From assembly GCF_050920415.1 (NCBI RefSeq), contig NZ_CP169309.1: DNA of 64,000 bases; one strand, written 5' to 3'. The notes under the pieces were generated by a model. The model was not told where the DNA came from. It saw nothing but the letters and a program-made list of their open reading frames with translations, and searched no databases. This document shows, one piece after another, positions 3,578-44,699 of the stretch. The translations under genes were made by a program, and so were the position numbers. Every line of letters begins with the position of its first letter. Position 1 is the stretch's first letter. The stretch comes from Escherichia coli. Lineage in GTDB: Bacteria; Pseudomonadota; Gammaproteobacteria; Enterobacterales; Enterobacteriaceae.

Positions 3578-3606
3578 TTGACCGTTTTACTCCAACTCCC
3601 TATAGT
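3578..3606 (+). promoter_or_regulatory. Candidate sigma-70 promoter for serW
   Basis: TTGACC (3578-3583), 17-bp spacer, TATAGT (3601-3606), then a GC-rich discriminator typical of stable-RNA promoters. Confidence 0.4.
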
Positions 3607-3649
3607 AGCGCCCCGTTGCCCCCCATGAGGTCAGGCAGCAAAACAATTT

Positions 3650-3737
3650 GGTGAGGTGTCCGAGTGGCTGAAGGAGCACGCCTGGAAAGTGTGTATACGG
3701 CAACGTATCGGGGGTTCGAATCCCCCCCTCACCGCCA
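3650..3737 (+). tRNA. serW: tRNA-Ser (anticodon GGA), 88 nt including CCA
   Basis: GGTGAGGTGTCCGAGTGGCTGAAGGAGCACGCCTGGAAAGTG...GGGGGTTCGAATCCCCCCCTCACCGCCA; acceptor stem ggtgagg/cctcacc, long variable arm, encoded CCA. Confidence 0.95.
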
Positions 3738-3750
3738 TATTTGAAGAAGA

Positions 3751-3777
3751 GCTCGTACGAAAGTACGGGCTTTTTTT
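3751..3777 (+). terminator. Rho-independent terminator after serW
   Basis: 8-bp stem gctcgtac/gtacgggc with GAAA tetraloop followed by T7. Confidence 0.7.
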
Positions 3778-3787
3778 CGCATTTTAT

Positions 3788-3867
3788 CTGCCTGTACGGC
3801 AGTGAACAAAATTACAAAGCATCAAAACCAGGGAATAGTTTTCTAAGCTGCCTGTACGGCAGTGAAC
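3788..3867. repeat. Two copies of a 20-bp direct repeat ctgcctgtacggcagtgaac (3788-3807 and 3848-3867), each holding a small hairpin
   Basis: Exact 20-bp identity read from the sequence, 60 bp centre to centre. Confidence 0.6.
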
Positions 3868-3926
3868 TCAAATACTACACGTCTAGCCCGTTGTTAATAA
3901 AGCAAAACCATCTCATTTTCCTGCTG

Positions 3927-3945
3927 CCCCCCCCCCCCCCCCCCC
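3927..3945. repeat. Homopolymeric C19 tract followed by T6
   Basis: 19 consecutive C at 3927-3945, then tttttt. Confidence 0.9.
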
Positions 3946-4030
3946 TTTTTTATCCTTACCTTTCAGCTGCACTACTTATCAACAACTTACCATCATCATC
4001 AAAAAAAGGGTCTGAACCTCCTCCACCCCA

Positions 4031-4068
4031 TAAATAAAAAGTCCGTAACCTCTTTCGAGATTACGGAC
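4031..4068 (-). terminator. Candidate rho-independent terminator of clpA
   Basis: Inverted repeat gtccgtaa...ttacggac, followed on the minus strand by tttttattta, just 3' of the clpA stop. Confidence 0.6.
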
Positions 4069-4093
4069 TTCACCAACCTACCTAACAATTAGA

Positions 4094-6370
4094 TTAATGC
4101 GCTGCTTCCGCCTTGTGCTTTTGTGCACTCTGGAATCCGTAAGTCAGCTCATTTTTCTCTTTATCCAGCGCAACCGTCACCTGACCGCCGTCCACCAGCG
4201 AACCAAACAACAGTTCGTTGGCGAGCGGTTTTTTCAGGTTGTCCTGGATGACACGCGCCATCGGACGTGCGCCCATCGCCCGGTCGTAACCTTTCTCGGC
4301 CAGCCAGTTACGCGCTTCCTGGCTCACTTCCAGAGAAACACCTTTCTGATCCAACTGAACCTGCAACTCGACGATGAACTTATCCACCACCTGATGGATC
4401 ACGTCGGTGGAGAGATGATCGAACCAGATAATGTTGTCGAGACGGTTACGGAATTCCGGTGTAAAGATCTTCTTGATCTCTTCCATCGCATCGGTGCTGT
4501 TATCCTGATGGATAAGACCAATCGATTTACGCTCAGTTTCCCGTACCCCGGCATTAGTGGTCATCACCAGCACCACGTTACGGAAGTCCGCTTTGCGTCC
4601 GTTGTTATCGGTCAGCGTACCGTTGTCCATCACCTGCAACAGAATATTGAACACGTCCGGGTGCGCTTTCTCGATTTCGTCCAGCAGCAGCACCGCATGA
4701 GGATGCTTGATGACCGCATCAGTCAGCAAACCGCCCTGATCAAAACCAACGTATCCCGGAGGCGCACCAATCAGACGGCTGACGGTATGGCGTTCCATAT
4801 ACTCGGACATATCAAAGCGTAACAGTTCAATGCCCAGAGCTTTGGAAAGCTGCACCGTCACCTCGGTTTTCCCGACCCCGGTAGGACCAGCAAACAGGAA
4901 CGAACCGACTGGTTTATGTTCGTGACCTAAACCTGCACGCGCCATCTTAATGGCTTCAGTCAGCGCCTCAATGGCTTTATCCTGACCGAAGACCAGCATT
5001 TTCAGGCGATCGCTGAGGTTTTTCAGGGTATCGCGGTCACTCTGAGAAACACTCTTCTCTGGAATGCGCGCAATACGGGCCACCACGGACTCAATATCCG
5101 CCACATTAACGGTTTTCTTGCGTTTGCTTACCGGCATCAGGCGTGCGCGAGCGCCCGCTTCGTCGATAACGTCAATAGCTTTATCCGGCAGATGACGATC
5201 GTTAATGTATTTCACCGCCAGCTCCACCGCAGCACGCACCGCTTTCGCGGTATAACGCACGTCGTGGTGCGCTTCATACTTCGGTTTCAGGCCATTGATG
5301 ATTTGAACAGTTTCTTCGATCGACGGTTCAGTAATATCAATTTTCTGGAAGCGACGCGCCAGAGCACGGTCTTTCTCGAAAATGTTGCTGAACTCCTGAT
5401 AGGTTGTCGAACCAATTACGCGAATTTTACCGCTGGAGAGCAACGGTTTGATCAGGTTAGCCGCATCAACCTGACCACCAGAGGCTGCACCCGCACCGAT
5501 AATGGTGTGGATCTCATCAATAAACAGGATGCTGTTAGTGTCCTGCTCCAGCTGCTTGAGCAACGCTTTAAAACGTTTTTCAAAGTCGCCGCGATATTTT
5601 GTGCCCGCTAACAGAGAACCGATATCGAGAGAGTAAATCGTACAGTCAGCCATCACTTCCGGCACATCGCCCTGAACAATTCGCCAGGCAAGACCTTCCG
5701 CAATCGCGGTTTTGCCGACACCGGATTCCCCCACCAGCAGCGGGTTGTTTTTACGGCGACGGCAGAGAACCTGAATAGCACGCTCCAGCTCCTTCTCACG
5801 ACCAATCAGTGGGTCGATTCCGCCCACACGCGCAAGCTGATTCAGGTTCGTCGTGAAATTCTCCATACGTTCCTCCCCACCAGCTTGTTCTTCGCTGTTT
5901 GGCTGGCTGCCAGGATCAGAAGACTGTGTCGGCTCGTCTTTACGCGTGCCATGAGAGATAAAGTTCACCACATCGAGACGGCTGACTTCATGTTTGCGCA
6001 ACAGATATGCCGCCTGCGACTCCTGTTCGCTAAAGATAGCGACCAGAACGTTTGCACCGGTAACCTCATTGCGACCGGAGGACTGGACATGGAAGACCGC
6101 ACGTTGCAGTACACGCTGAAAACTCAGCGTTGGCTGTGTGTCGCGCTCCTCTTCACTGGCAGGCAGAACGGGTGTGGTTTGTTCAATAAAGGCTTCCAGT
6201 TCCTGACGGAGCGCAACCAAATCCACAGAACACGCTTCCAGCGCCTCCCGGGCAGATGGGTTACTGAGCAGCGCCAGTAACAAGTGCTCGACGGTCATAA
6301 ACTCATGACGGTGCTCGCGCGCTCTGGCGAAAGCCATATTTAAACTGAGTTCCAGTTCTTGATTGAGCAT
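4094..6370 (-). CDS. clpA: ATP-dependent Clp protease ATP-binding subunit ClpA
   Basis: ORF matches ClpA ([31 protein letters not shown]..., two AAA+ modules GESGVGKT and GPTGVGKT); start trimmed to ATG at 6368-6370, preceded by a gggagg SD. Confidence 0.97.
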
Positions 6371-6400
6371 AGGCACCTCCCCCAATTTTTATGCCTGCAT

Positions 6401-6721
6401 TCAGGCTTTTTCTAGCGTACACAGCAATGGATGCTCATTCTCCCTCGCGTACTTGTTCACCATCGCCACTTTGGTTTCTGCAACCTCGGCGGTAAAGACT
6501 CCGCAAATGGCCTTCCCCTGGTAGTGAACAGCGAGCATCAATTGCGTTGCACGTTCTACATCATAAGAAAAGAATTTTTGTAACACGTCAATAACAAACT
6601 CCATCGGAGTGTAATCATCATTGACTAATATCACTTTATACATAGATGGCGGTTTTAGCGCGTCGCGAACTTTTTCTTCCGCCAGTTGATCAAAGTCCAG
6701 CCAGTCGTTCGTTTTACCCAT
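6401..6721 (-). CDS. clpS: Clp protease adaptor ClpS
   Basis: 106-aa [46 protein letters not shown]..., immediately upstream of clpA. Confidence 0.97.
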
Positions 6722-7043
6722 TGTCAGTTATCATCTTCGGTTACGGTTATCGGCAGAACGCCCTGCCGCTGACAAGAGCTTATTTGCCTGACCAATCTAC
6801 TCCACATGATAGATAACTATCATCTATCGTTGGCATCAGCGACATCTGTCACATTCCTGTCAATAGCGTTAACTGCTTCAAATTTTTGATTCATACCTGC
6901 CCCCTGGCCCCTGTCAAATGCTTGACGGCTCGCCCTAATTCTCTAAATTGTATTTCTAGAGTTGGCGAGGTTTTGAACAGCCCCCTCTCTGACCCCGGTT
7001 TATTCCATCTTACTTGTATAAGATTTGCGAAGGATGTCGAAGC

Positions 7044-7268
7044 ATGGAAAAGGGTACTGTTAAGTGGTTCAACAATGCCAAAGGGTTTGGTTTCATCTGC
7101 CCTGAAGGCGGCGGCGAAGATATTTTCGCTCATTATTCCACCATTCAGATGGATGGTTACAGAACGCTAAAAGCTGGACAATCCGTTCAGTTTGATGTCC
7201 ACCAGGGGCCAAAAGGCAATCACGCCAGTGTTATTGTGCCCGTCGAAGTAGAAGCGGCAGTCGCATAG
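7044..7268 (+). CDS. cspD: Cold-shock-domain protein CspD (stationary-phase DNA replication inhibitor)
   Basis: 74-aa CSD protein MEKGTVKWFNNAKGFGFICPEGGGEDIFAHYSTIQMDGYRTLKAGQSVQFDV...; ORF-track N-terminal extension trimmed. Confidence 0.95.
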   Translation: MEKGTVKWFNNAKGFGFICPEGGGEDIFAHYSTIQMDGYRTLKAGQSVQFDVHQGPKGNHASVIVPVEVEAAVA

Positions 7269-7305
7269 CTCTTCTGTCTCATTGTGTACATCCTACAGGC
7301 AAAAT

Positions 7306-7330
7306 GCCAGCCCGATCGGCTGGCATTTTT
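7306..7330. terminator. Hairpin terminator between convergent cspD and macB
   Basis: gccagcc-cgatc-ggctggc followed by attttt on the plus strand. Confidence 0.55.
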
Positions 7331-7340
7331 ATCTCAAAAA

Positions 7341-9287
7341 TTACTCTCGTGCCAGAGCATCTACTGGATCCAGTCGTGCCGCATTTCGTGCGGGTAACCA
7401 GCCAAATAAAATCCCGGTGACCGTCGAGCAGAGAAACGCCAGCAGCAGCGCCAACGGTGAAAAACCAATCTCCCAGCCGGGTAAGAAAAGCTGCAAGGTG
7501 AAAGCAATTAACAGTGACAGTGTTATTCCCAACGCGCCACCGACCAGGCAAACCAGTACGGCTTCGATCAGAAACTGTTGCAAAACATCGCTTGCTCGCG
7601 CACCTACAGCCATGCGAATGCCAATTTCCCGCGTCCGCTCGGTCACTGATACCAGCATAATATTCATTACACCAATACCGCCCACCACCAGCGAAATCAC
7701 CGCCACCAGCGTCAGAAACAGTTGTAAAGTACGTGTGGTCTTTTCAACGGTTTTCAAGACGCCGTCCATGTTCCAGGTAAAGAAATCCTTCTTACCGTGG
7801 CGCAGTGAAAGTAAACGCGTGAGTTGCTGTTCCGCCTCGGCGCTGTCAAAGCCCTCTTTCACCCTGACAGTAATAGAGTTCAGCCACGACTGGCCCATAA
7901 CTCTCCCGGACATCGTGCTGTAAGGTAACCACACGCGCAGCACTTTACTACTGCCAAACATCGACTGTTTTTCCTCTGCCACGCCGATGACTCTCGCTGG
8001 CATATTACCAACCAAGATAACCTCGCCAACCACATTTGCTTTATGGGGGAAAAGCTGACGGCGAGTATTACTGTCGAGAACCACGACTTGCGCACGGCCA
8101 TTCAGCTGTTCCTGATTAAAGGTGTTCCCTTCACTGAAGGTCATGCCATAGACATTAAAATAATCGCCGCTCACGCCATTGGCACTGGCAGCCACATCGA
8201 CATTGTTATAACGCAGGCGCAGGTTTTGCGAGACGGCAGGTGTGGCTGAGGCGACCCACGGTTGTTTTTGGATGGCGATTAAGTCGTCGTACTTCAGCGC
8301 CTGCTGATATTGCGGATCGTCATCGCCAAAATCTTTCCCGGGATAGACATCAATAGTATTCGTACCAATAGAACGAATATCCGCCAGCACCATTTGTTTG
8401 GCGGCGTCGCCGACCACGACAATGGAAACCACCGACGCAATACCGATAATAATCCCCAGCATGGTCAGTAAAGTACGCATTTTATTCGCTGCCAGCGCCC
8501 GCCACGCCATCGTCAGCGCCTCGTTAAAACCGCTGACAAACTGCCGCCAGCCAGACGCCGTGTTGATAACAGGCTCCGTCCCGCCAGCAACATTCACTTT
8601 TTCAATGGCGGGAGGATTGCGCACAATTTCGCCGTCGCGAATTTCGATCACCCGCTCGGCCTGAGCAGCGACCTGCGGATCGTGGGTAACGATAATCACC
8701 GTATGCCCGCGATCGCGCAGCTGATGCAGGATCGCCATCACCTCTTCGCCAGAATGACTGTCCAGTGCGCCGGTTGGTTCATCGGCAAGAATTACCTGAC
8801 CGCCGTTCATCAATGCCCGCGCGATGCTGACGCGCTGTTGCTGACCACCCGAAAGCTGTGCCGGGTAATACTCTGTACGGTCTTCCAGTCCCAGTCGTTG
8901 CAGTAACTCCTGGGCGCGAAGCAACCGCTGTTTCCGCTCAAGACCGGCATAGACGGCGGGTACTTCAACGTTCTGCTCGGCGGTTAAATGTGAAAGCAAA
9001 TGGTAACGCTGGAAAATAAAGCCGAAGTGTTCGCGACGCAGTTGCGCCAGCGCATCGGCGTCCAGCATGGCAACATCCTGACCGGCGACGCGATAGGTGC
9101 CGCTGGTGGCCTTATCCAGGCAGCCGAGAATATTCATCAGGGTCGATTTACCGGAACCCGAAGCGCCGACAATCGCCACCATCTCACCAGCATAAATATC
9201 GAGGGTGATGCCCTTCAGCACCTCAACTTGCTCATCACCGGCAGGATAGCTGCGACGAATATCCTTTAATTCGAGCAAGGGCGTCAT
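7341..9287 (-). CDS. macB: Macrolide export ABC transporter MacB (ATPase/permease)
   Basis: 648-aa ORF with N-terminal NBD ([28 protein letters not shown]) and C-terminal FtsX-like permease. Confidence 0.95.
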
Positions 9288-10399
9288 TGTGCAGCTCCTG
9301 GTTTGGCCTCACCAATCACCACTTCATCGCCCGCTTCCAGCCCTTTGACAATCTCAACATCGGTATCGTTGCGTGCGCCAATCGTCACTTCACGCTCGCG
9401 TGTTTCACCATTACGCAACAATTTGACTTTATAACGATTATCGCCAACCGGATCGCCTAACGCCGACAGAGGGATCGTCAGCACATTTTTCACATCGGTG
9501 AGCTGAATATGCACTTGCGCGGTCATATCCAGCCGCAGCAAACCATTGGGGTTTGGAACTTCAAAACGGGCGTAATAGAAAATAGCGTCATTAACCTTTT
9601 CCGGCGTCGGTAGCACATCCTTGATTTGCCCCTCGTAGCGCGTCAGCGGATCGCCAAGCACTGTAAACCAGGTTTTTTGCCCCGGCTTCAGGTGAATTAC
9701 ATCCGCTTCAGAAACCTGCGCTTTTACCAGCATGGTACTCATATCTGCCAGCGTCAAAATGTTCGGTGCTTGTTGTGCGGCAATCACCGTCTGACCTTGC
9801 AGAGTGGTGATTTGCGTGACTTCCCCAGCCATCGGGGCAACGATGCGGGTGTAATCGAGATTGGTTTTAGCCGTATCGAGAGAGGCCTGATTGCGCTTTA
9901 TTTGCGCGTCAATGGTGCCAATTTGTGCCTGTTTCACAGCCATCTCCGTCGCGGCGGTGTCGAGATCCTGTTGTGAAACAGCCTGCGTTTGGGCCAGACG
10001 TTGCTGACGTGAATACGTCACCCGTGCCAGTTTCAGTTCCGCTTCCGCCTGCTGACGCTGCGCGCGCAACTCCATCAACGTTGCTTCCACCTCCTTGATC
10101 TGGTTTTCAGCCTGTTCAGGATCAATAACACCTAAAAGTTGGTCTTTTTTTACTTTATCGCCAATCGCCACCGACAGCGTTTTCAACTGACCGCTGACCT
10201 GTGCACCCACGTCAACCTTACGCAGCGCGTCCAGCTTTCCGGTCGCCAGCACGCTTTGCTGTAAATCGCCTGGACGCACAATCAGCGTCTGATAAGTCGG
10301 CACGGGTGCGTTAAGAATTCTCCATAACGTAATCAGCCCGGCAATGACTATCACCAGCGCAATAACGTAACGCTTCTTCACGGTTTTCCGCTTTTTCAT
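9284..10399 (-). CDS. macA: Macrolide efflux periplasmic adaptor MacA
   Basis: 371-aa membrane-fusion protein [18 protein letters not shown]...; 4-bp overlap with the macB start. Confidence 0.95.
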
Positions 10400-10513
10400 A
10401 AATATTCTGAATACTCCATATGCCAATCCGGGTCATTAACTTCAACGAAATATCAACAAAACCCTAAAATTTACGTTAGTAATCACACTATTGATGTTTG
10501 GTTAAGATACGCC

Positions 10514-11506
10514 ATGGTGAAATCGACGTTATGTATAACCATTGATTTCATGAATATGTCGCAGCTAACTGAACGGACCTTTACGCCATCTGACTCTCTC
10601 AGCAGCCTGTCACTTTTTCTTAGTCTGGCACGTGGACAGTGTCGGCCGGGTAAATTTTGGCATCGCCGTAGTTTTCGCCAGAAATTTTTGCTGCGCTCGT
10701 TGATTATGCCGCGTTTAAGCGTTGAGTGGATGAACGAACTTTCCCACTGGCCTAATCTCCATGTGTTGTTAACGCGCCAGCCGCGACTGCCTGTGCGTCT
10801 GCATCGCCCTTACCTTGCGGCGAATCTTAGCCGCAAGCAATTGCTGGAGGCGTTACGTTACCATTATGCATTGCTCCGTGCCTGCATGTCGGCAGAAGAA
10901 TTCAGCTTATATTTGAATACTCCCGGGCTGCAACTGGCGAAGCTGGAAGGCAAAAACGGCGAGCAGTTCACGCTTGAGCTGACCATGATGATCTCAATGG
11001 ATAAAGAAGGTGACAGCACAATCCTGTTCCGCAACTGCGAAGGTATTCCTCTGGCAGAGATCACCTTTACTCTGTGTGAATACCAGGGGAAAAGAACAAT
11101 GTTTATTGGCGGGCTGCAAGGTGCGAAATGGGAAATTCCACATCAGGAAATCCAGAATGCGACGAAAGCCTGCCACGGGCTATTTCCCAAACGTCTCGTG
11201 ATGGAAGCGGCCTGTCTGTTTGCCCAACGTTTGCAGGTAGAGCAGATCATTGCCGTCAGCAATGAAACGCATATTTACCGCAGCCTGCGTTATCGCGATA
11301 AAGAAGGCAAGATCCATGCAGATTACAACGCTTTCTGGGAGTCGGTTGGCGGCGTATGTGATGCTGAACGCCATTACCGCCTTCCGGCACAGATAGCACG
11401 AAAAGAGATTGCCGAAATCGCCAGTAAAAAACGGGCTGAATACCGTCGGCGCTATGAGATGCTCGACGCTATTCAGCCACAAATGGCCACGATGTTTCGC
11501 GGTTAA
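10514..11506 (+). CDS. ybjX: DUF535/VirK-family protein YbjX
   Basis: 330-aa ORF in the position and at the length recalled for ybjX; exact start not verified. Confidence 0.8.
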   Translation: MVKSTLCITIDFMNMSQLTERTFTPSDSLSSLSLFLSLARGQCRPGKFWHRRSFRQKFLLRSLIMPRLSVEWMNELSHWPNLHVLLTRQPRLPVRLHRPYLAANLSRKQLLEALRYHYALLRACMSAEEFSLYLNTPGLQLAKLEGKNGEQFTLELTMMISMDKEGDSTILFRNCEGIPLAEITFTLCEYQGKRTMFIGGLQGAKWEIPHQEIQNATKACHGLFPKRLVMEAACLFAQRLQVEQIIAVSNETHIYRSLRYRDKEGKIHADYNAFWESVGGVCDAERHYRLPAQIARKEIAEIASKKRAEYRRRYEMLDAIQPQMATMFRG

Positions 11507-13161
11507 TCCGCGCGACCGCGCGCCAGCCACAGCACGCGTGAGAACATTTTTTTCAGCAGCGTCGGTACGGAGTCCACACCACGACGGCCGGCCTCCATTG
11601 CCACTTCAATGGCAAGATCGGGTTTGGAAGAGCGATGGATCGCTTTCGAGATAATTTTACGCAGATTCATCGGCACATTTTCCGGGATCTGCGCCACGCG
11701 GTGGAACACATCGGAAAATCCCTGGCGATACATAAAATGTTCCATATCCAGCGCCGGTAACGCCGTTAAATGTTCTCGTTCGGCTTCCCGATCGTTATTC
11801 AACAGGCTGCGTACCGTAGCGGCATACTTCTTCCCGGCTTCATCGCCATCGACCAGCACATGCCATTCAATCCCCATTCGACGGGCGAATTTAACCAGTG
11901 GCTTTAGCCCGGACTGGGCAAACTCAATGACCTTGATCCCTTCGGCATCAAAATGATGTCCACACTGACGCGCCAGTTCATTGATAACCCAGGTTTCCGT
12001 TTCGCCTTCCACCAGCAGCCAGCAGCGAGCAAACAGCGATGACGGACGATTAAAACGAATGTGGAAAGAGATGCGTCGGCTATCTTCGGTACTCAAGCCA
12101 CTCGGCCCCAGACGCCAGGCGGCAACGCGAGAGGACTCACGTACCAGTCGGCAAACATGCTCTACCGGCGTTAACGAAAGCAACTCACCCGAGTTGGTGG
12201 TGGCAATGCGCTGCAATGGCAGAAGATTCAACAGATGCCAGGCAACTGAAAGCATAATAGGGTGTAAACGCGTTTCTGGATCTTCAATCAGCAATAATGG
12301 ACGTGCGTCTTTATCGAGCCGCAATGTGCCTTTTGCCTGCAATAAAGTAGCAAACAGGCCGAGCAAAATAACCCGATACGAGCGCCCTCCAGGCCGGTCA
12401 ATCATCCGGTTGATGATATCCAGATAGCGCCAGCTTCGTTGCTCATTGCTGGCTCGCCGCCGCATTAAACGATATCGCGCCTGTCCGGCCCCCTGCTCAG
12501 AGAAATAATGCTCAAGCAGTTGCACCATTGCGGAAAGTCCCTGACGAATCTGCCCATCAGAGAGATTTTGCGGATGTGAGGATAACTCACGGGCGAGGAA
12601 ATCGAGCTGGCGCGCGGTGACTTCCACATTAGGGACATTTGGCACCGTGCCGTTACGAATACGGCGCATAAAGCGGGCATCACGCAAGCGCAGCACCGGC
12701 ATTAAACGCACCAGATGGCGTGCCTGATCGTTAATATCCTCGACATCAATCGGATGTCCGTCTTTATCGAGAAAACTGCGGAGTGTCATCACGCTGCCGT
12801 CTTCCGCACTCTCCCCTTCCAGACGATAAAAAATACGGTGATAGCCATCGGTGCATGGCGTCCAGCACGCTTCCAGCGGCCGATAGCGGCGAACCCGATG
12901 TCGGCCTGGCAGAGATTCGCGGAAGGTCAAAATAATATGCAGATGATGTTCTCGCCCGTTGATATCTCCCGGCGGGAACCAGAAATCGTCGCGCTCAAAA
13001 TGGTAGAGATCTGATTCTGGCGATAGCAGCAGAGTTAAGGCGTCCAGCAAGCTGGATTTACCCCACGCGTTCTCCCCAATCAGGACGTTGTTTTGTTCCA
13101 GCATCAACGACAAACGGTTGATACCGCGAAAACCCACAATTTCAACGCGCTCAAGAATCAT
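11503..13161 (-). CDS. ybjD: OLD-family ATPase/nuclease-like protein YbjD
   Basis: 552-aa ORF with N-terminal P-loop LIGENAWGKSSLLDAL; position and length match ybjD. Confidence 0.85.
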   Translation of the reverse strand: MILERVEIVGFRGINRLSLMLEQNNVLIGENAWGKSSLLDALTLLLSPESDLYHFERDDFWFPPGDINGREHHLHIILTFRESLPGRHRVRRYRPLEACWTPCTDGYHRIFYRLEGESAEDGSVMTLRSFLDKDGHPIDVEDINDQARHLVRLMPVLRLRDARFMRRIRNGTVPNVPNVEVTARQLDFLARELSSHPQNLSDGQIRQGLSAMVQLLEHYFSEQGAGQARYRLMRRRASNEQRSWRYLDIINRMIDRPGGRSYRVILLGLFATLLQAKGTLRLDKDARPLLLIEDPETRLHPIMLSVAWHLLNLLPLQRIATTNSGELLSLTPVEHVCRLVRESSRVAAWRLGPSGLSTEDSRRISFHIRFNRPSSLFARCWLLVEGETETWVINELARQCGHHFDAEGIKVIEFAQSGLKPLVKFARRMGIEWHVLVDGDEAGKKYAATVRSLLNNDREAEREHLTALPALDMEHFMYRQGFSDVFHRVAQIPENVPMNLRKIISKAIHRSSKPDLAIEVAMEAGRRGVDSVPTLLKKMFSRVLWLARGRAD

Positions 13162-13586
13162 ATCCCCTCCAGAAATATGTGACTTATCCTTTACGCTGGC
13201 AGTATAACGGGAAAGGCCTTGCTAATACGTGATGACATCACATTTAAGCATGGCAAATGTCTGAAAAATGAGCGAATAATCGCGTTATACTCCCTCTTGC
13301 TGATAAGTCTGCAAAAACAACAAAATCAAATAATTAGCATGATAAATTATTTTTTATTACGCCTAAAGGATTAAATCTTTTGCTTGCACTACACTGTCAA
13401 TCAGACAAATGACTATATGGGGCAACCCGCTGTTGCCCTAAATCAAATTTACTGGATTTATTTATCTGGTGAATGACTCGCCTTCGTTTTTAAAATAGCC
13501 GCGCATTATTTCCGTCGTCACTTTTTTACGACGACCCTATAAAACGACCATATTTTTCACAGGGTCAATTTTTAATTGAGGTGGAT

Positions 13587-14282
13587 ATGTTCAGAAAATT
13601 AGCAGCTGAATGTTTTGGTACTTTCTGGCTTGTTTTTGGTGGCTGTGGTAGTGCCGTACTGGCCGCAGGCTTCCCGGAATTAGGCATTGGTTTTACCGGC
13701 GTAGCGCTGGCATTCGGTTTAACCGTTCTGACGATGGCCTTCGCTGTTGGTCATATTTCTGGTGGTCATTTTAACCCGGCGGTCACTATTGGCTTATGGG
13801 CTGGCGGACGTTTTCCGGCAAAAGAAGTCGTTGGCTACGTAATTGCCCAGGTTGTCGGCGGTATTGTTGCAGCGGCGCTGCTGTATTTAATTGCCAGTGG
13901 TAAAACGGGATTTGACGCGGCAGCCAGCGGTTTTGCTTCTAACGGTTATGGCGAGCATTCACCAGGCGGTTATTCCATGCTTTCCGCGCTGGTGGTTGAA
14001 CTGGTATTGAGTGCAGGTTTCTTGCTGGTGATCCACGGCGCAACCGACAAATTCGCTCCGGCGGGTTTTGCACCAATTGCCATTGGTCTGGCATTAACGC
14101 TGATTCACTTAATCAGTATTCCGGTGACTAACACTTCCGTTAACCCGGCGCGCAGTACTGCGGTTGCCATCTTCCAGGGCGGCTGGGCGTTAGAACAACT
14201 GTGGTTCTTCTGGGTAGTGCCAATTATCGGCGGTATTATCGGTGGTCTGATTTACCGGACTCTGCTGGAAAAGCGTAATTAA
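13587..14282 (+). CDS. aqpZ: Aquaporin Z
   Basis: 231-aa MIP-family protein with two NPA motifs (HFNPAV, SVNPAR); [25 protein letters not shown]... Confidence 0.96.
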
Positions 14283-14291
14283 TTAACGCAG

Positions 14292-14320
14292 AAGGCCTGG
14301 CGCAATGTCAGGCCTTTTTT
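14292..14320 (+). terminator. Rho-independent terminator after aqpZ
   Basis: aaggcctg...caggcctt hairpin followed by tttttt. Confidence 0.6.
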
Positions 14321-14379
14321 AAATATATAGATTCATCTTCCTGTTGCGCTCCTTGATGTGTTAAGCCACATATAGTCAC

Positions 14380-14600
14380 TGGCGCAGGGAGCGCGCAGGG
14401 GGCGGCCAATCGCCGCCGCCCCCTGCACCCCCGGGCTCTGGCGAACAAAATCGCCGCTGCGCGGTGCCCTCGACTTATCCCTTGCGGCTACCGGGTCGGG
14501 CGCGAGGTAACATCCCGGTAAAACGCGCCCTCAGCCCACATCCATGTGGGCTGCCCCGGCCTTCAGGGAACGCCTCGGCGATTTTGACGCCACCAACACC
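14380..14600. repeat. GC-rich multi-hairpin intergenic element (possibly a Box C or other small repeat family)
   Basis: Perfect 11-bp inverted repeat cagggggcggc...gccgccccctg, palindrome cccacatccatgtggg, several GC-rich stems; sharp contrast with AT-rich flanks. Confidence 0.45.
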
Positions 14601-14766
14601 GGTGCGGTTTGTAATTAAAGCGCAAGAACATCTTTAAATGAAAATGAATACCCTACCGATCCTTATGCATAACATTTCCTTTTAATTGCAACTTTACTCG
14701 TCCTTCCGCTTTCAGTAGTGTGTCATCGCGCATTTCGACTTATTTCTTTGCAAGGACTGGTTTTTC

Positions 14767-15666
14767 ATGTTTTCTGGGCTGTTAATCATTCTGGTTCCCC
14801 TGATTGTGGGTTACCTCATTCCGCTTCGCCAAAAAGCTGCATTAAAGGTTATTAATCAGCTATTAAGCTGGATGGTTTACCTTATTCTCTTTTTTATGGG
14901 TATCAGTCTGGCGTTTCTCGATAACCTCGCCAGTAACCTGTTGGCGATTCTGCATTATTCCGCCGTCAGTATTACCGTTATTTTACTGTGTAATATTGCC
15001 GCCCTGATGTGGCTGGAGCGAGGCCTACCGTGGCGCAACCACCATCAGCAAGAAAAACTCCCGTCACGTATTGCGATGGCGCTGGAGTCCCTCAAGCTCT
15101 GCGGTGTGGTGGTGATTGGCTTTGCTATTGGCCTTAGCGGATTAGGTTTCTTACAACACGCTACGGAAGCCAGCGAATACACGTTAATTCTGCTACTTTT
15201 CCTCGTCGGTATTCAGTTGCGTAATAATGGCATGACCTTAAAGCAGATTGTCCTTAATCGCCGGGGAATGATTGTCGCTGTGGTGGTGGTGGCCAGTTCT
15301 TTAATTGGTGGTTTAATTAACGCCTTTATTCTTGATCTTCCCATCAATACCGCGCTGGCAATGGCTTCCGGTTTCGGCTGGTATTCTCTTTCCGGTATTT
15401 TATTGACCGAATCTTTTGGTCCGGTAATCGGGAGCGCGGCGTTTTTTAATGATTTGGCCCGTGAGCTGATTGCTATTATGTTGATCCCTGGGCTGATTCG
15501 CCGTAGCCGCTCTACTGCACTGGGCTTATGCGGTGCGACGTCGATGGATTTCACACTGCCCGTTCTTCAACGTACTGGCGGACTGGATATGGTCCCGGCG
15601 GCGATTGTTCACGGTTTTATTCTTAGCCTGTTAGTGCCGATCCTCATCGCCTTTTTCTCTGCGTAA
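14767..15666 (+). CDS. lysO: L-lysine exporter LysO (YbjE)
   Basis: 299-aa polytopic membrane protein; position and length match ybjE/lysO. Confidence 0.88.
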   Translation: MFSGLLIILVPLIVGYLIPLRQKAALKVINQLLSWMVYLILFFMGISLAFLDNLASNLLAILHYSAVSITVILLCNIAALMWLERGLPWRNHHQQEKLPSRIAMALESLKLCGVVVIGFAIGLSGLGFLQHATEASEYTLILLLFLVGIQLRNNGMTLKQIVLNRRGMIVAVVVVASSLIGGLINAFILDLPINTALAMASGFGWYSLSGILLTESFGPVIGSAAFFNDLARELIAIMLIPGLIRRSRSTALGLCGATSMDFTLPVLQRTGGLDMVPAAIVHGFILSLLVPILIAFFSA

Positions 15667-15772
15667 TACCTCTCTGGCGGTAGATCCCTGCCGCCAAAAT
15701 TGCGCTAAATCAATCTCCCTTAAAGTTGCATGAAAAATCCCTTTTATCCCCGCGTTAAGCGTCTTAACCTTA

Positions 15773-15795
15773 AACATGTATATTAAATATAACTT
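15773..15795 (+). promoter_or_regulatory. Candidate NsrR operator in the hcp promoter
   Basis: aacatgtatattaaatataactt, an imperfect inverted repeat resembling the NsrR consensus, about 15 bp upstream of the hcp start. Confidence 0.4.
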
Positions 15796-15809
15796 TAAAA
15801 GGTGTGATC

Positions 15810-17462
15810 ATGTTTTGTGTGCAATGTGAACAAACTATCCGTACTCCGGCAGGAAACGGCTGCTCATACGCGCAGGGGATGTGTGGTAAAACGGCGGAAA
15901 CCTCTGACCTTCAGGATTTACTCATTGCGGCGCTGCAAGGGCTTTCGGCCTGGGCGGTAAAAGCACGTGAATACGGCATCATCAACCACGATGTAGACAG
16001 CTTCGCGCCGCGCGCATTTTTCTCAACCCTGACTAACGTTAACTTCGATTCTCCGCGTATTGTCGGCTACGCTCGTGAAGCAATTGCCCTGCGCGAGGCG
16101 CTGAAAGCACAGTGCCTGGCTGTAGATGCCAACGCCCACGTCGATAACCCGATGGCTGACCTGCAACTGGTGAGTGACGATCTCGGCGAGCTGCAACGTC
16201 AGGCGGCGGAATTTACTCCCAATAAAGATAAAGCGGCGATTGGCGAAAACATTCTCGGCCTGCGTCTGCTCTGCCTGTATGGCCTGAAAGGTGCTGCCGC
16301 CTATATGGAACACGCGCACGTTCTCGGTCAATATGACAACGATATTTACGCCCAGTACCATAAAATCATGGCATGGCTGGGTACCTGGCCTGCCGATATG
16401 AACGCACTTCTCGAGTGCTCCATGGAAATCGGCCAGATGAACTTCAAAGTGATGAGCATTCTGGACGCAGGCGAAACCGGTAAATACGGTCACCCGACGC
16501 CAACTCAGGTCAACGTCAAAGCGACGGCGGGTAAATGCATTCTGATTTCCGGTCACGATCTCAAAGATCTCTACAACTTGCTGGAACAGACCGAAGGCAC
16601 GGGCGTTAATGTCTACACTCACGGCGAAATGCTGCCTGCCCACGGCTACCCGGAGCTGCGTAAATTCAAGCATCTGGTCGGTAACTACGGCAGCGGCTGG
16701 CAGAATCAGCAAGTAGAGTTCGCTCGCTTCCCTGGACCTATCGTGATGACCTCGAACTGCATCATCGACCCAACCGTAGGGGCTTATGACGATCGTATCT
16801 GGACCCGCAGCATCGTTGGCTGGCCGGGTGTGCGTCATCTGGATGGTGATGATTTCTCAGCAGTTATTGCCCAGGCACAACAAATGGCGGGCTTCCCGTA
16901 CAGCGAAATTCCGCACCTGATCACCGTGGGCTTTGGTCGTCAGACGCTGCTTGGCGCGGCGGATACGCTGATTGATCTGGTGAGCCGTGAAAAACTGCGT
17001 CATATCTTCCTGCTCGGTGGCTGTGACGGCGCACGCGGCGAGCGCCACTACTTCACCGATTTCGCCACCAGCGTGCCAGATGACTGCCTGATCCTGACCC
17101 TCGCCTGCGGTAAATATCGCTTTAACAAACTTGAGTTTGGCGATATCGAAGGTCTGCCGCGTCTGGTAGATGCTGGTCAATGTAACGATGCTTACTCAGC
17201 GATTATTCTGGCTGTCACTTTGGCAGAAAAACTGGGCTGCGGTGTCAACGATCTGCCGTTGTCGCTGGTACTCTCCTGGTTCGAACAAAAAGCGATTGTT
17301 ATTCTGCTGACGCTGCTTTCTTTGGGCGTGAAAAATATCGTTACCGGCCCGACTGCACCTGGCTTCCTGACGCCAGACCTGCTGGCGGTACTGAACGAGA
17401 AATTCGGCCTGCGTTCTATCACCACTGTTGAAGAAGACATGAAGCAACTGTTGAGCGCGTAA
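15810..17462 (+). CDS. hcp: Hybrid-cluster protein Hcp
   Basis: 550-aa [31 protein letters not shown]... with the N-terminal Cys cluster. Confidence 0.96.
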
Positions 17463-17473
17463 GGAGTTTGTCG

Positions 17474-18442
17474 ATGACGATGCCAACCAATCAATGCCCG
17501 TGGCGGATGCAGGTTCATCACATTACGCAAGAAACGCCGGATGTGTGGACGATTTCCCTGATTTGCCACGATTACTACCCGTATCGCGCCGGGCAATATG
17601 CGCTGGTCAGCGTGCGTAACTCAGCGGAAACGCTGCGTGCTTACACCATTTCCTCCACGCCAGGCGTGAGTGAATACATCACTCTGACCGTGCGACGGAT
17701 TGATGACGGTGTCGGTTCCCAGTGGCTGACCCGCGATGTAAAACGCGGTGACTACCTCTGGCTTTCGGACGCGATGGGGGAATTTACCTGCGACGATAAA
17801 GCAGAAGATAAATTCCTGTTGCTGGCAGCCGGCTGCGGCGTCACACCGATTATGTCGATGCGTCGCTGGCTGGCGAAAAATCGCCCGCAGGCGGATGTGC
17901 AGGTGATCTACAACGTGCGTACGCCGCAGGATGTTATTTTCGCCGATGAATGGCGTGACTATCCGGTGTCACTGGTGGCGGAAAATAACGTTACCGAGGG
18001 TTTCGTTGCCGGGCGTCTGACACGTGAACTGCTGACAAGCGTTCCTGATTTAGCCTCTCGTACTGTGATGACCTGTGGCCCGGCTCCGTATATGGATTGG
18101 GTAGAACAGGAAGTGAAAGCGCTCGGCGTGACGCGTTTCTTTAAAGAGAAGTTCTTTACGCCAGTGGCGGAAGCAGCAACCAGCGGTCTGAAATTCACCA
18201 AACTGCAACCGGCGCAAGAATTTTACGCACCTGTTGGCACCACACTGCTGGAGGCTTTGGAAAGCAACAAAGTTCCGGTTGTCGCCGCCTGCCGTGCAGG
18301 CGTTTGCGGCTGCTGTAAGACGAAAGTAGTTTCCGGTGAATATACGGTGAGTAGCACAATGACGCTGACCGACGCCGAAATCGCAGAAGGTTATGTACTG
18401 GCCTGCTCCTGCCATCCGCAGGGGGATTTGGTTCTCGCATAA
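17474..18442 (+). CDS. hcr: NADH oxidoreductase Hcr (reductase partner of Hcp)
   Basis: 322-aa ORF with C-terminal 2Fe-2S ferredoxin motif CRAGVCGCC; SD aaggag at 17461-17466. Confidence 0.95.
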   Translation: MTMPTNQCPWRMQVHHITQETPDVWTISLICHDYYPYRAGQYALVSVRNSAETLRAYTISSTPGVSEYITLTVRRIDDGVGSQWLTRDVKRGDYLWLSDAMGEFTCDDKAEDKFLLLAAGCGVTPIMSMRRWLAKNRPQADVQVIYNVRTPQDVIFADEWRDYPVSLVAENNVTEGFVAGRLTRELLTSVPDLASRTVMTCGPAPYMDWVEQEVKALGVTRFFKEKFFTPVAEAATSGLKFTKLQPAQEFYAPVGTTLLEALESNKVPVVAACRAGVCGCCKTKVVSGEYTVSSTMTLTDAEIAEGYVLACSCHPQGDLVLA

Positions 18443-18574
18443 TCGTATTATGCCCGATGATATACCTGTCATCGGGCAGTTTAACCGTTAGTGCCTCATT
18501 TTTCTCCCACCCCATCCCCCTCCGTCAGATGAACTAAACTTGTTACCGTTATCACATTCAGGAGATGGAGAACC

Positions 18575-20293
18575 ATGAAACAAACGGTTGCAGCTTATAT
18601 CGCCAAAACACTCGAATCAGCAGGGGTAAAACGCATTTGGGGAGTGACTGGCGACTCTCTGAACGGTCTTAGCGACAGTCTTAATCGCATGGGCACCATC
18701 GAGTGGATGCCCACCCGTCATGAAGAAGTGGCGGCCTTTGCCGCTGGCGCTGAAGCCCAACTTAGCGGAGAACTGGCAGTCTGCGCCGGATCATGCGGAC
18801 CTGGCAACCTGCACTTAATCAACGGTTTGTTCGATTGTCACCGTAATCACGTTCCGGTACTGGCAATTGCCGCTCATATCCCTTCCAGCGAAATTGGCAG
18901 CGGCTATTTCCAGGAAACCCACCCGCAAGAGTTATTCCGCGAATGTAGCCATTATTGCGAGCTGGTTTCCAGCCCGGAGCAGATCCCACAAGTGCTGGCG
19001 ATTGCTATGCGTAAAGCGGTGCTAAACCGTGGCGTTTCCGTTGTCGTGTTACCGGGCGACGTGGCGTTAAAACCGGCTCCGGAAGGGGCAACCACGCACT
19101 GGTATCATGCGCCACAACCAGTCGTCACCCCAGAAGAGGAAGAGTTACGCAAACTGGCGCAACTGCTGCGTTACTCAAGCAATATCGCCCTGATGTGCGG
19201 TAGCGGCTGCGCGGGGGCGCATAAAGAGCTCGTCGAGTTTGCCGGAAAAATTAAAGCGCCAATTGTTCATGCCCTGCGCGGTAAAGAACATGTCGAATAC
19301 GATAATCCGTATGATGTCGGAATGACGGGATTAATCGGCTTCTCGTCAGGTTTTCATACCATGATGAACGCCGACACGTTAGTGCTGCTCGGCACCCAAT
19401 TCCCCTACCGTGCGTTCTACCCGACCGATGCCAAAATTATTCAGATTGATATCCACCCAGCCAGCATCGGCGCACACAGTAAGGTGGATATGGCACTGGT
19501 CGGTGATATCAAATCGACTCTGCGTGCATTGCTGCCTTTAGTGGAAGAAAAAACCGATCGCAAATTTCTGGATAAAGCGCTGGAAGATTACCGCGATGCC
19601 CGCAAAGGGCTGGACGATTTAGCTAAACCGAGTGAGAAAGCGATTCACCCACAATACCTGGCGCAGCAAATTAGCCATTTTGCTGCCGATGACGCCATCT
19701 TTACCTGTGACGTTGGCACACCTACGGTATGGGCGGCACGTTATCTGAAAATGAACGGAAAACGCCGCCTGTTAGGTTCTTTTAACCACGGTTCGATGGC
19801 TAATGCCATGCCTCAGGCGCTGGGCGCGCAGGCAACCGAGCCGGAACGACAGGTGGTCGCCATGTGCGGTGATGGCGGTTTCAGTATGTTGATGGGCGAT
19901 TTTCTCTCAGTGGTACAAATGAAGTTGCCGGTAAAAATTATCGTCTTTAACAATAGTGTGCTGGGCTTTGTGGCGATGGAGATGAAGGCTGGTGGCTACC
20001 TGACTGACGGCACCGAACTGCATGACACCAACTTTGCCCGCATTGCTGAAGCGTGCGGCATTACGGGTATTCGCGTGGAAAAAGCGTCTGAAGTCGATGA
20101 AGCCCTGCAACGCGCATTCTCCATCGACGGCCCGGTGCTGGTGGATGTGGTGGTTGCGAAAGAAGAATTAGCCATTCCGCCGCAGATCAAACTCGAACAA
20201 GCCAAAGGTTTTAGCCTGTATATGCTGCGCGCAATCATCAGCGGACGCGGCGATGAAGTGATCGAACTGGCGAAAACGAACTGGCTAAGGTAA
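18575..20293 (+). CDS. poxB: Pyruvate oxidase (ubiquinone) PoxB
   Basis: 572-aa ThDP/FAD enzyme [32 protein letters not shown]... Confidence 0.97.
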
Positions 20294-20330
20294 AAAGGGT
20301 GGCATTTCCTGTCATAAATAAGGACATGCC

Positions 20331-21332
20331 ATGATTGATTTACGCAGTGATACCGTTACCCGACCGAGCCGCGCCATGCTCGAAGCAATGATGGCCGCCC
20401 CGGTTGGGGACGACGTTTACGGAGACGACCCTACCGTTAATGCTCTGCAGGACTATGCGGCAGAGCTTTCCGGGAAAGAAGCCGCCATTTTTCTGCCTAC
20501 CGGCACTCAGGCCAACCTGGTCGCTCTGCTCAGTCACTGCGAACGCGGCGAAGAGTATATTGTCGGGCAGACTGCACATAATTATCTGTACGAAGCCGGC
20601 GGCGCTGCGGTACTGGGCAGCATTCAACCGCAACCTATCGATGCTGACGCCGACGGTACGCTACCGCTGGATAAAGTGGCGATGAAAATCAAACCCGACG
20701 ATATCCACTTTGCCCGCACCAAATTACTCAGTCTGGAAAACACCCACAACGGCAAAGTATTGCCGCGTGAATACTTAAAAGAAGCATGGGATTTTACCCG
20801 CGAGCACAATCTGGCGCTGCATGTTGACGGTGCGCGCATCTTTAATGCCGTGGTGGCTTACGGCTGCGAACTGAAAGAGATCACGCAATATTGTGATTCG
20901 TTCACCATTTGTCTGTCGAAAGGTCTTGGTACGCCAGTCGGTTCATTACTTGTCGGTAATCGTGATTACATTAAACGCGCCATCCGCTGGCGGAAAATGA
21001 CTGGCGGCGGGATGCGTCAATCCGGGATTCTGGCCGCAGCCGGAATGTATGCGCTGAAAAATAACGTTGCACGCTTGCAGGAAGACCACGATAACGCCGC
21101 CTGGATGGCGGAGCAACTGCGTGAAGCAGGCGCGGATGTCATGCGCCAGGACACCAATATGCTGTTTGTCCGCGTCGGACAAGAAAATGCTGCCGCGTTA
21201 GGCGAATACATGAAAGCGAGAAACATACTGATTAACGCCTCGCCGATTGTCCGCCTGGTAACCCATCTCGATGTCTCGCGTGAACAACTGGCAGAAGTCG
21301 CAGCCCACTGGCGCGCTTTCCTGGCGCGTTAA
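20331..21332 (+). CDS. ltaE: Low-specificity L-threonine aldolase
   Basis: 333-aa [36 protein letters not shown]... Confidence 0.95.
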
Positions 21333-21342
21333 GGAGAGAGAC

Positions 21343-22773
21343 GTGCCGCAACGCATTTTAGTTCTCGGTGCCAGTGGCTACATTGGTCAGCATCTGGTGC
21401 ACGCGCTTAGCCAACAAGGGCATCAGATCCTGGCGGCGGCACGTCACGTCGACAGGCTTGAAAAGCTGCAACTGGCAAACGTCAGTTGCCATAAAGTCGA
21501 TCTCAGCTGGCCGGATAACCTTCCGGCCCTGTTGCAGAATATCGATACCGTCTATTTTCTGGTGCACAGCATGGGCGAAGGCGGCGATTTTATCGCTCAG
21601 GAACGCCAGGTAGCTCTTAACGTCCGCGATGCGCTGCGCGAAGCACCGGTTAAACAATTAATCTTTCTCAGTTCATTGCAGGCCCCGCCTCACGAGCAGT
21701 CGGACCATCTGCGCGCCCGTCAGGCTACGGCGGATATTCTTCGTGAAGCGGGTGTCCCAGTGACCGAATTGCGCGCCGGAATTATCGTTGGTGCAGGTTC
21801 AGCGGCGTTCGAAGTCATGCGCGATATGGTTTACAACCTGCCAGTGTTAACGCCGCCACGCTGGGTTCGTTCACGCACCACGCCCATCGCGCTGGAAAAC
21901 TTGCTGCACTATCTGGTGGCGCTGTTAGATCATCCGGCCAGCGAACACCGCATCTTCGAAGCCGCCGGACCAGAGGTGCTCAGTTATCAGCAACAGTTTG
22001 AACATTTTATGGCGGTGAGCGGTAAGCACCGCTGGTTAATCCCCATCCCCTTTCCCACCCGTTGGATCTCGGTGTGGTTTCTTAATGTGATTACCTCCGT
22101 ACCGTCAACCACCGCCAAAGCGTTGATTCAGGGACTGAAACACGATCTGCTGGCTGATGACACCGCGCTACGTGCACTCATTCCACAACGGCTGATCGCT
22201 TTCGATGACGCGGTACGTCGCACCCTGAAAGAAGAAGAAAAACTGGTCAACTCCAGCGACTGGGGATACGACACTCAGGCCTTTGCCCGCTGGCGACCGG
22301 AGTATGGCTATTTCGCCAAACAGGCAGGGTTTACCGTTAAAACTTCTGCCAGCCTTGCGGCTTTATGGCAGGTGGTGAATCAAATCGGCGGTAAAGAGCG
22401 TTATTTCTTTGGCAATATTTTGTGGCAAACCCGGGCGTTGATGGACCGCGCAATCGGTCATAAGCTGGCGAAAGGCCGCCCGGAGCGTGAATATTTGCAG
22501 ACCGGAGATGCGGTGGATAGCTGGAAAGTGATTGTCGTTGAACCGGAAAAACAACTTACGCTGTTATTTGGCATGAAAGCGCCGGGGCTGGGACGACTGT
22601 GTTTTACCCTGGAAGATAAAGGTGACTATCGTACTATCGATGTTCGCGCATTCTGGCATCCGCACGGTATGCCGGGGCTGTTTTACTGGTTATTGATGAT
22701 CCCCGCGCATCTGTTTATTTTTCGCGGAATGGCAAAACGAATCGCCAGACTGGCAGAACAAAGCACAGATTAA
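21343..22773 (+). CDS. ybjT: NAD(P)-binding Rossmann-fold protein YbjT
   Basis: GTG start at 21343 gives 476 aa, preceded by aaggag; N-terminal [10 protein letters not shown] dinucleotide-binding motif; ORF-track 5' extension overlapping ltaE rejected. Confidence 0.85.
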
Positions 22774-22871
22774 TCGACAAAACCTGCGTTATTCTTTCAT
22801 GTTTCCCATTGCATCATGGGGGAAATCACGGAAGAATGCGCACGTCATTTTCTCAACAACAGTGGATTGAT

Positions 22872-42302: not shown

Positions 42303-43988
42303 GTGAATATAAACGTCGCCGAATTGTTAAATGGGAATTACATTCTGTTATTATTTGTGGTCCTCGCGCTTGGGCTATGTCTCGGAAAGTTACGACTTGG
42401 TTCGATCCAACTGGGTAATTCCATTGGCGTTTTAGTCGTATCGCTGTTATTAGGCCAACAACATTTCAGCATTAACACCGATGCGCTTAATCTTGGCTTT
42501 ATGCTGTTTATTTTCTGCGTCGGGGTCGAAGCCGGACCGAACTTTTTTTCCATTTTTTTTCGCGATGGGAAAAATTACCTAATGTTAGCACTGGTGATGG
42601 TTGGCAGTGCGCTGGTGATCGCCTTAGGGTTAGGTAAGCTGTTTGGCTGGGATATTGGCCTGACGGCCGGTATGTTAGCAGGCTCTATGACGTCAACACC
42701 GGTTTTGGTCGGTGCTGGCGATACACTGCGTCATTCCGGCATGGAAAGCAGGCAGCTCTCACTGGCACTGGATAATCTGAGCCTCGGGTATGCCTTAACC
42801 TATTTAATCGGTCTGGTGAGTTTGATTGTTGGTGCGCGTTACTTGCCGAAATTGCAGCATCAGGACTTACAGACCAGCGCCCAGCAAATCGCCCGCGAAC
42901 GTGGCCTGGACACAGATGCCAACCGTAAGGTTTATTTGCCGGTGATCCGCGCCTACCGCGTCGGCCCGGAGCTGGTGGCCTGGACCGATGGCAAAAATCT
43001 GCGTGAACTGGGTATTTATCGGCAAACCGGCTGTTACATTGAACGTATTCGGCGTAACGGGATTCTGGCAAATCCAGACGGTGATGCCGTACTACAAATG
43101 GGCGATGAAATAGCGTTGGTAGGCTATCCCGACGCCCACGCCCGACTCGATCCCAGTTTCCGTAATGGCAAAGAAGTTTTCGATCGTGACCTTCTCGACA
43201 TGCGTATCGTCACTGAAGAAGTGGTCGTTAAAAACCATAACGCTGTAGGCAAACGTCTCGCACAACTGAAGTTGACCGATCACGGTTGCTTCCTTAACCG
43301 CGTCATTCGTAGCCAGATTGAGATGCCGATTGATGACAACGTCGTGCTTAACAAAGGTGACGTTTTACAAGTCAGCGGCGATGCCCGTCGCGTAAAAACC
43401 ATCGCCGATCGCATCGGCTTTATCTCGATTCACAGCCAGGTCACTGACTTGCTGGCATTCTGCGCCTTCTTTGTTATTGGGCTGATGATCGGGATGATCA
43501 CCTTCCAGTTCAGCACATTCAGTTTCGGCATGGGGAACGCTGCCGGGTTGTTATTCGCCGGAATTATGCTGGGCTTTATGCGCGCTAACCACCCGACCTT
43601 CGGTTACATTCCGCAGGGTGCATTAAGCATGGTGAAGGAGTTCGGCTTGATGGTGTTTATGGCAGGCGTTGGTCTGAGCGCTGGTAGCGGTATTAATAAC
43701 GGCCTGGGCGCGATTGGCGGTCAGATGTTGATTGCCGGATTGATTGTCAGTCTGGTGCCAGTGGTTATCTGCTTCTTGTTCGGTGCTTATGTATTGCGAA
43801 TGAACCGCGCACTGTTGTTCGGCGCAATGATGGGCGCACGCACCTGCGCGCCGGCAATGGAGATCATCAGTGATACAGCTCGCAGTAATATCCCGGCGCT
43901 GGGCTATGCGGGCACTTACGCAATCGCCAACGTCCTGCTGACGCTGGCAGGGACACTCATCGTCATGGTATGGCCAGGATTAGGATAA
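42303..43988 (+). CDS. ybjL: Putative transporter YbjL (AAE family, with TrkA-C domains)
   Basis: 561-aa ORF with GTG start ([20 protein letters not shown]...); duplicated membrane domains flanking a soluble domain. Confidence 0.9.
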
Positions 43989-44031: not shown

Positions 44032-44059
44032 GAACTTTTCCGCAGGGCATCAGTCTTAA
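44032..44059 (+). promoter_or_regulatory. Sigma-E-type promoter of rybB
   Basis: -35 aGAACTT (44032-44037), about 15-16-bp spacer, -10 gTCTtAA (44053-44059), with the sRNA 5' end a few bp downstream. Confidence 0.55.
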
Positions 44060-44064
44060 TTAGT

Positions 44065-44143
44065 GCCACTGCTTTTCTTTGATGTCCCCATTTTGTGGAG
44101 CCCATCAACCCCGCCATTTTGGTTCAAGGTTGGTGGGTTTTTT
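44065..44143 (+). ncRNA. rybB: RybB small RNA (sigma-E-dependent, Hfq-binding, represses OMP mRNAs)
   Basis: gccactgcttttctttgatgtccccattttgtggagcccatcaaccccgccattttggttcaaggttggtgggtttttt matches RybB, including the terminator hairpin and T run; lies between ybjL and rcdA as in K-12. Confidence 0.9.
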
Positions 44144-44162
44144 GTTATCTAAAATTTATCTA

Positions 44163-44699
44163 CTACCCTGCAACCCTCTCAACCATCCTCAAAATCTCCT
44201 CGCGCGATAGCGGCTTACGGTCGGTGACAAAATGCAGCGTCATCCCCTCAATAAACGCATCAAGCGCGCGGGCGGTTCCGGGTTCAAACCATTGTTCGAG
44301 CGTTTGCTGACTGCGCTGCATCCAGTTTTGCATTACCGTTTTTAATAGCGGTTTTCGGCTAGCCAGCGCGTAGAGCTGGTACATCAGCTCCATGTTATCC
44401 GGCGTTGCAACCTGTGAGCTGTAGATCATATCGGTGATAGCCTGGCATGCGCCCGGAGCATCACTAACATCGCTAAAAAATGCCTGATATTGCCGGGACA
44501 TGATCTCAGTAAAACTGCTGAACGCCTCCAGCAACAACTCATCAATTCCTGAAAAATAGTAGGTCATCGACCCCAACGGTACCCCGGCAAGGGTAGCAAT
44601 TTTGCGGTGCGTAACGGCATGTATTCCGTAAAGTTTCACCGCCTCCAGCGTGGCCTGGATAATTTTTTCTCGCCGTTGCGGATCGTTAGCGCGACGCAT
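44163..44699 (-). CDS. rcdA: TetR-family regulator RcdA (YbjK)
   Basis: 178 aa from [35 protein letters not shown]... with N-terminal HTH. Confidence 0.9.

Follow-up and report, generated by a model that had tools for sequence, protein, structure and literature searches.

The closest described counterpart of the locus analysed here is the rybB gene of Escherichia coli K-12 (b4417), which occupies 79 nt on the minus strand of NC_000913 (887979-888057). The native seed of RybB is 16 nt long (PMC11402225), the published sigma-E consensus consists of a −35 element GGAACTTTT and a −10 element GTCAAA, and the Salmonella rybB promoter drops to background when rpoE is mutated (PMC1804206). Integration of P2-like (Felsduovirus) prophages at the 3′ end of rybB has also been described already (PMC10121019, PMC4048246). 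The DNA analysed here is a stretch of 64,000 nucleotides from an E. coli strain (contig NZ_CP169309.1), hereafter the window.

When the whole window was searched against Rfam 15, the RybB family (RF00110) was matched on the plus strand at 44068-44146 with 104.8 bits (E 1.7e-20), well over the gathering score of 40, and model positions 1-79 of 79 were covered, revealing a full-length RybB match. As the Rfam model begins 3 nt inside the mapped transcript, the start of RybB was set at the 5′ end annotated in K-12, where the window reads GCCACTGC. The K-12 gene aligns with the window over the resulting transcript with 77 of its 79 bases conserved, and the order ybjL-rybB-rcdA (ybjK) is the same in both. 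A preliminary description, made from the sequence, had proposed a 79-nt RybB in the ybjL-rcdA spacer that ORF-based annotation would easily miss. The covariance-model score and the alignment bear out the first part of this proposal and, regarding the second, the RefSeq annotation of the closest genome, that of E. coli MFDS1022581 (NZ_CP169399.1), holds no rybB feature, nor do most E. coli records list any feature under the RybB match. This confirmation that RefSeq annotation leaves rybB out of most E. coli genomes is a useful by-product. We put at about 0.96 the probability that the features collected in Table 1 correspond to a functional rybB of this strain, at its usual locus and with its sigma-E promoter, judging from its sequence. 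It is an already known gene, present as an ordinary minority allele; as the copy of a textbook sigma-E-dependent sRNA is intact, the finding has little weight beyond annotation.

Table 1. Features of the rybB locus, in window coordinates.
Feature	Coordinates	Strand	Basis or remark
ybjL, upstream neighbour	42303..43988	+	561-aa ORF; annotated ybjL in K-12 and NZ_CP169399.1
Sigma-E −35 element, GAACTTT (−33 to −27)	44032..44038	+	Identical to K-12; cross-species conservation; published consensus
Sigma-E −10 element, AGTCTTAA (−13 to −6)	44052..44059	+	AGTC and A at −7 conserved; published consensus
RybB sRNA transcript, 79 nt	44065..44143	+	RF00110, 104.8 bits; 77/79 bases as in K-12 rybB b4417
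5′ seed, target-pairing domain, 16 nt	44065..44080	+	Identical to K-12; native seed length
Terminator hairpin	44099..44139	+	Rfam consensus structure; covariation; MFE
Substitution U56 (K-12 C), apical loop	44120..44120	+	K-12 alignment, fold, cross-species column
Substitution G69 (K-12 A), 3′ arm	44133..44133	+	U41-A69 pair becomes U41-G69 wobble
Empty attB of P2-like prophages, covering the 3′ end of rybB and ~16 nt downstream	44134..44159		Overlap of the two pieces in split genomes
U tract of intrinsic terminator	44138..44143	+	TTTTTT followed by GTT, identical to K-12
rcdA, convergent downstream neighbour	44163..44699	−	Annotation of NZ_CP169399.1, identical to the window here

The relationship of the window to MFDS1022581 was followed over its whole length. 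Window positions 25642-64000 are 100% identical to NZ_CP169399.1 and positions 6807-25646 are 99.99% identical, without the IS2 carried there. Positions 1-6806 (cydC-aat-infA-serW-clpA-clpS by ORF sizes) differ from that genome, which carries at that place a P4-like island (integrase, primase, Icd-like) adjoining cspD; the window therefore derives from a close relative of MFDS1022581 and not from that strain. Within this first segment, one perfect copy of a type I-F CRISPR repeat was found on the minus strand at 3840-3867 (50.1 bits to Rfam CRISPR-DR4), between tRNA-Ser(GGA) (3650-3737) and the clpA ORF (4094-6385); no second copy within 3 mismatches was found in the whole window, and the repeat looks like an orphan left over from an array. 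An intact 594-aa ORF lies between ybjQ and ybjP (25242-27026, minus strand), its matches to pentapeptide repeats being weak and under the Pfam cut-offs, and its counterpart in MFDS1022581 is interrupted by an IS2, with the two pieces annotated as pseudogenes; K-12 is not known to have a gene there. Finally, a match to the Rfam naRNA4 family (RF02564, 78.4 bits) in the artM-artJ spacer (31313-31393, minus strand) is most likely a REP/BIME-type repeat.

The comparison with K-12 was carried out over the 182 bp extending from the stop of ybjL to that of rcdA and revealed three differences: T for C at 44120, G for A at 44133 and T for C at 44155. The first two correspond to RybB nt 56 and nt 69, and the third lies 12 nt past the terminator U tract. 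From −76 to nt 55 the window does not differ from K-12, a stretch including promoter, +1, 16-nt seed and linker, and the U tail is identical too. Therefore, the two differences from K-12 noted in the preliminary description are both real (C56U and A69G), and the K-12 strings that it gave (tttcgg and ggttgatgg) proved correct on alignment. That they could be sequencing or assembly errors is refuted by the finding of the identical 79-nt allele in 151 independent complete genomes and of the G69 intermediate in 739, leaving this explanation with next to no probability. Equally improbable is that rybB is here a decaying or silent copy: such a reading has nothing in its favour beyond the two substitutions in the 3′ half, whereas none of promoter, +1, seed, stem and U tail is damaged and the same allele is retained in those 151 genomes.

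The sigma-E promoter was analysed across species. For this, one genome per species was scanned for RybB nt 4-26, which yielded at least 120 loci with 114 distinct upstream regions from Enterobacterales, aligned gap-free from +1. That nt 4-26 are invariant is built into this search pattern and is no independent evidence, whereas the upstream regions and positions +1 to +3 lie outside the pattern. Among the matches listed, positions −33 to −27 (GAACTTT) carried the same base in 112-114 of the 114 upstream sequences and positions −13 to −10 (AGTC) in 108-114 of them, and A at −7, T at −1 and GCC at +1 to +3 were invariant. Conservation in these listed matches was restricted to the −35 and −10 blocks, −4, −3, −1 and +1 to +3, both blocks sitting at a fixed distance from +1, whereas the 13-nt spacer between them held nearly no information (0.05-0.6 bits per column) and the flanks were unconserved. 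The gap from GAACTT to TCTTA in the rybB promoter is 16 bp. A search with the loose motif GAACTT-N15-17-TCNNA gave 2 matches in the window vs. 1.57 expected, which is not significant alone, and the motif count was rejected as promoter evidence. The second of these matches, GAACTT-N17-TCAAA at 6667-6694 (plus strand), falls within the region of the clpS ORF, on the opposite strand, and the number of matches is that expected by chance. Therefore, the sigma-E promoter claimed for this locus was accepted on its identity with K-12 and on the footprint in the 114 listed sequences, not on the motif alone. This clear cross-species footprint of a sigma-E promoter is a further useful by-product.

Regarding the RNA itself, the conserved 5′ end GCCACUGCUUUUCUUUGAUGUCCCC, corresponding to the seed, is present and identical to K-12. 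The terminator hairpin is formed by arms at nt 35-46 (44099-44110) and nt 64-75 (44128-44139) enclosing a loop of nt 47-63 (44111-44127); the arms contain the segments CCCATCAACC (44101-44110) and GGTTGGTGGG (44128-44137), after which TTTTTT extends to 44143. In the window, all 12 pairs of the helix are standard. When the Rfam helix (nt 35-46 x nt 64-75) was tested on 59 distinct aligned RybB sequences, among the matches listed, 97.5% of the helix cells were standard pairs, compared to 15-51% in controls slid by 1-3 columns, and both sides changed in 6 of the 12 pairs in these same sequences. An example of such covariation is the CCCATCAACC/GGTTGATGGG type found in Enterobacteriaceae vs. the CCCGATAGTC/GACTATCGGG type, which Yersinia, Xenorhabdus and Providencia carry. 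A short inner helix of three pairs (G49-U59, C50-G58, C51-G57) was 96% paired, and the 79-nt RNA folded with an MFE of −25.0 kcal/mol (z = −2.17). With 12/12 pairs, six U and a helix supported by covariation, the hairpin plus T run read earlier as a terminator stands. A simple terminator scanner missed the rybB hairpin because its limit on loop length is 8 nt, and its negative result is not evidence against the terminator. A bidirectional terminator serving also rcdA appears unlikely, as on the minus strand the hairpin is followed by CTCCACAAAATGGGG, without a U tract. From what is known of the family in the literature (PMC4102768), the U tract of the window would also act as the 3′ Hfq-binding tail.

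The preliminary description had located both differences from K-12 in the terminator stem and had suggested that they may be compensatory. Location in the stem holds for nt 69, which pairs with U41, but not for nt 56, which lies in the apical loop. Among the matches listed, the nt-56 column had T in 34 distinct sequences, A in 15 and C in 10, T/U being the commonest base across Enterobacterales, and nt 56 is a free, variable loop position. The compensatory proposal was discarded, as neither the Rfam structure nor the ViennaRNA folds nor the helix supported by covariation pairs nt 56 with nt 69, the change in the stem goes from U-A to U-G, and the predicted energies are at most 1 kcal/mol apart. 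The MFE values obtained with ViennaRNA were −25.2 kcal/mol for C56/A69 (K-12), −24.6 for C56/G69, −25.6 for U56/A69 and −25.0 for U56/G69 (window), in such a way that window and K-12 differ by 0.2 kcal/mol and the four haplotypes fall within 1 kcal/mol, inside the error of the model; nearest-neighbour energies of this kind are still compatible with termination efficiency or RNA half-life being slightly affected. The fold of the window allele showed an extra A52-U56 pair and kept the terminator hairpin. The homologous pair is also a U-G wobble in the Serratia oryzae and S. grimesii types. In the folding model, C56U and A69G are thus predicted to leave the terminator hairpin intact, and the two substitutions are most likely neutral. 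A truly compensatory pair would have provided a modest case of RNA structure being conserved within a species, which this pair does not.

The frequencies of the alleles were determined as exact 79-nt matches in 5420 complete E. coli records. The K-12 type C56/A69 was found in 4497 records (83%), C56/G69 in 739 (14%) and the window type U56/G69 in 151 (3%), carried for example by strains MFDS1022581, PCN033 and EC42405, with about 33 records left by subtraction for other alleles. The U56/A69 combination had 0 records, meaning that the other counts contain no surplus from alignment trimming. This same U56/A69 RNA was, however, present in Raoultella ornithinolytica and in a soil MAG, and its presence in Raoultella shows that U56 does not need G69. 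Among the matches listed, G69 was found in no other species with the CCCATCAACC stem, thus supporting that A69 is ancestral and that G69 is derived within E. coli. The distribution of the haplotypes points to nested descent, in which A69G would have appeared first within E. coli and C56U later on the G69 background. Strains of O157:H7 were found under both A69 (PV15-279) and G69 (TR01), suggesting that G69 may have arisen more than once or been moved by recombination. The sole strongly divergent copy among the 5420 records was that of E. coli AR_0017 (NZ_CP024886.1, 159372-159441), a RybB match of ~70 nt with 88.6% identity. Apparent copies of RybB on "plasmids" came from Mb-sized or chromosome-fragment records, such as pCombat13F7-1, and were rejected as real plasmid-borne copies. 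This quantified spectrum of alleles of a terminator hairpin is another by-product of use.

These counts bear also on the idea that U56/G69, in ~3% of E. coli genomes, is a functionally distinct RybB, either with U56 offsetting a weakening produced by G69 or with termination, stability, Hfq binding or a loop-dependent activity being altered, so that U56 was selected only on the G69 background. If true, this tuned allele could show, for example, altered read-through towards the convergent rcdA, a different half-life, or a loop-dependent activity as in other sRNAs. That U56 never appears without G69 in the 5420 E. coli records would fit this idea, but for two sites separated by 13 nt plain nested descent yields three of the four haplotypes, and the fourth exists in Raoultella and the MAG; on the same grounds, the absence of U56/A69 from E. 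coli was rejected as evidence of epistasis. By the predicted energies, G69 weakens the fold by 0.6 kcal/mol and U56 strengthens it by 0.4, although these differences are within model error and the two nucleotides do not pair together; moreover, U is the commonest base at nt 56 across species among the matches listed. The terminator loops of SdsR, RseX and ArrS matter for the control of fepA, which RybB represses too, but the loop effect was shown for those three sRNAs and not for RybB, which acts independently of the long 5′UTR (PMC11979758). Overall, a functionally tuned U56/G69 allele seems very improbable compared to neutral substitutions in an intact gene.

The 3′ end of rybB in the window also contains the attachment site of P2-like prophages in an empty state. 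A 131-bp query across this site was contiguous in 4225 of 5422 E. coli genomes, and ~22% were split by an insertion, with the two pieces overlapping over the segment listed as attB in Table 1. In the Klebsiella phage 4LV2017, the annotated attR of 19 bp begins at RybB nt 69. Both lysogen junctions were seen in pCombat13F7-1 and in APEC O78, ybjL-rybB being followed by a P2-like prophage in the former. As the att core starts directly after nt 69, a phage origin of G69 was considered and rejected, since A69 is present in the copies examined from the phage side and from lysogens.

The proposed mode of action follows the steps that were shown experimentally in K-12 and Salmonella (PMC1804206, PMC11402225, PMC4102768). 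Envelope stress, in the form of unfolded outer-membrane proteins, would lead to the release of sigma-E, and the sigma-E holoenzyme would then use the promoter at 44032-44059 to initiate transcription at 44065. Transcription would be halted by the hairpin and the U tract, leaving an RNA end at 44143, and the 79-nt RNA would be bound by Hfq. Its 5′ 16-nt seed would pair with omp and other mRNAs, resulting in less synthesis of outer-membrane proteins, relief of the stress and feedback on sigma-E. Expression, sigma-E dependence, Hfq binding and target repression are expected for the window allele from its identity with the K-12 and Salmonella genes.

Compared to known systems, the other sRNAs of the sigma-E regulon resemble RybB in being Hfq-dependent, in having a sigma-E promoter and in repressing mRNAs of envelope proteins (PMC4102768), but their sequences, loci and targets are unrelated to RybB and they are not the family present here. 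Within the RybB family, the RNAs of Serratia, Yersinia, Proteus, Xenorhabdus and Providencia have another stem (CCCGATAGTC type) with compensatory changes, and their loops vary in length and sequence. In Salmonella and other Enterobacterales, the seed, the promoter blocks and the hairpin architecture are as in the window, and the RybB RNA of S. enterica arizonae has the exact K-12 sequence. The closest system is K-12 RybB (b4417, RF00110), which coincides with the window in locus, sigma-E promoter, +1, 16-nt seed, linker, U tail and 12-bp terminator helix, and differs from it by two transitions, one in the loop (C56U) and one in the stem (A69G, which produces a U-G wobble), plus one substitution 12 nt after the terminator.
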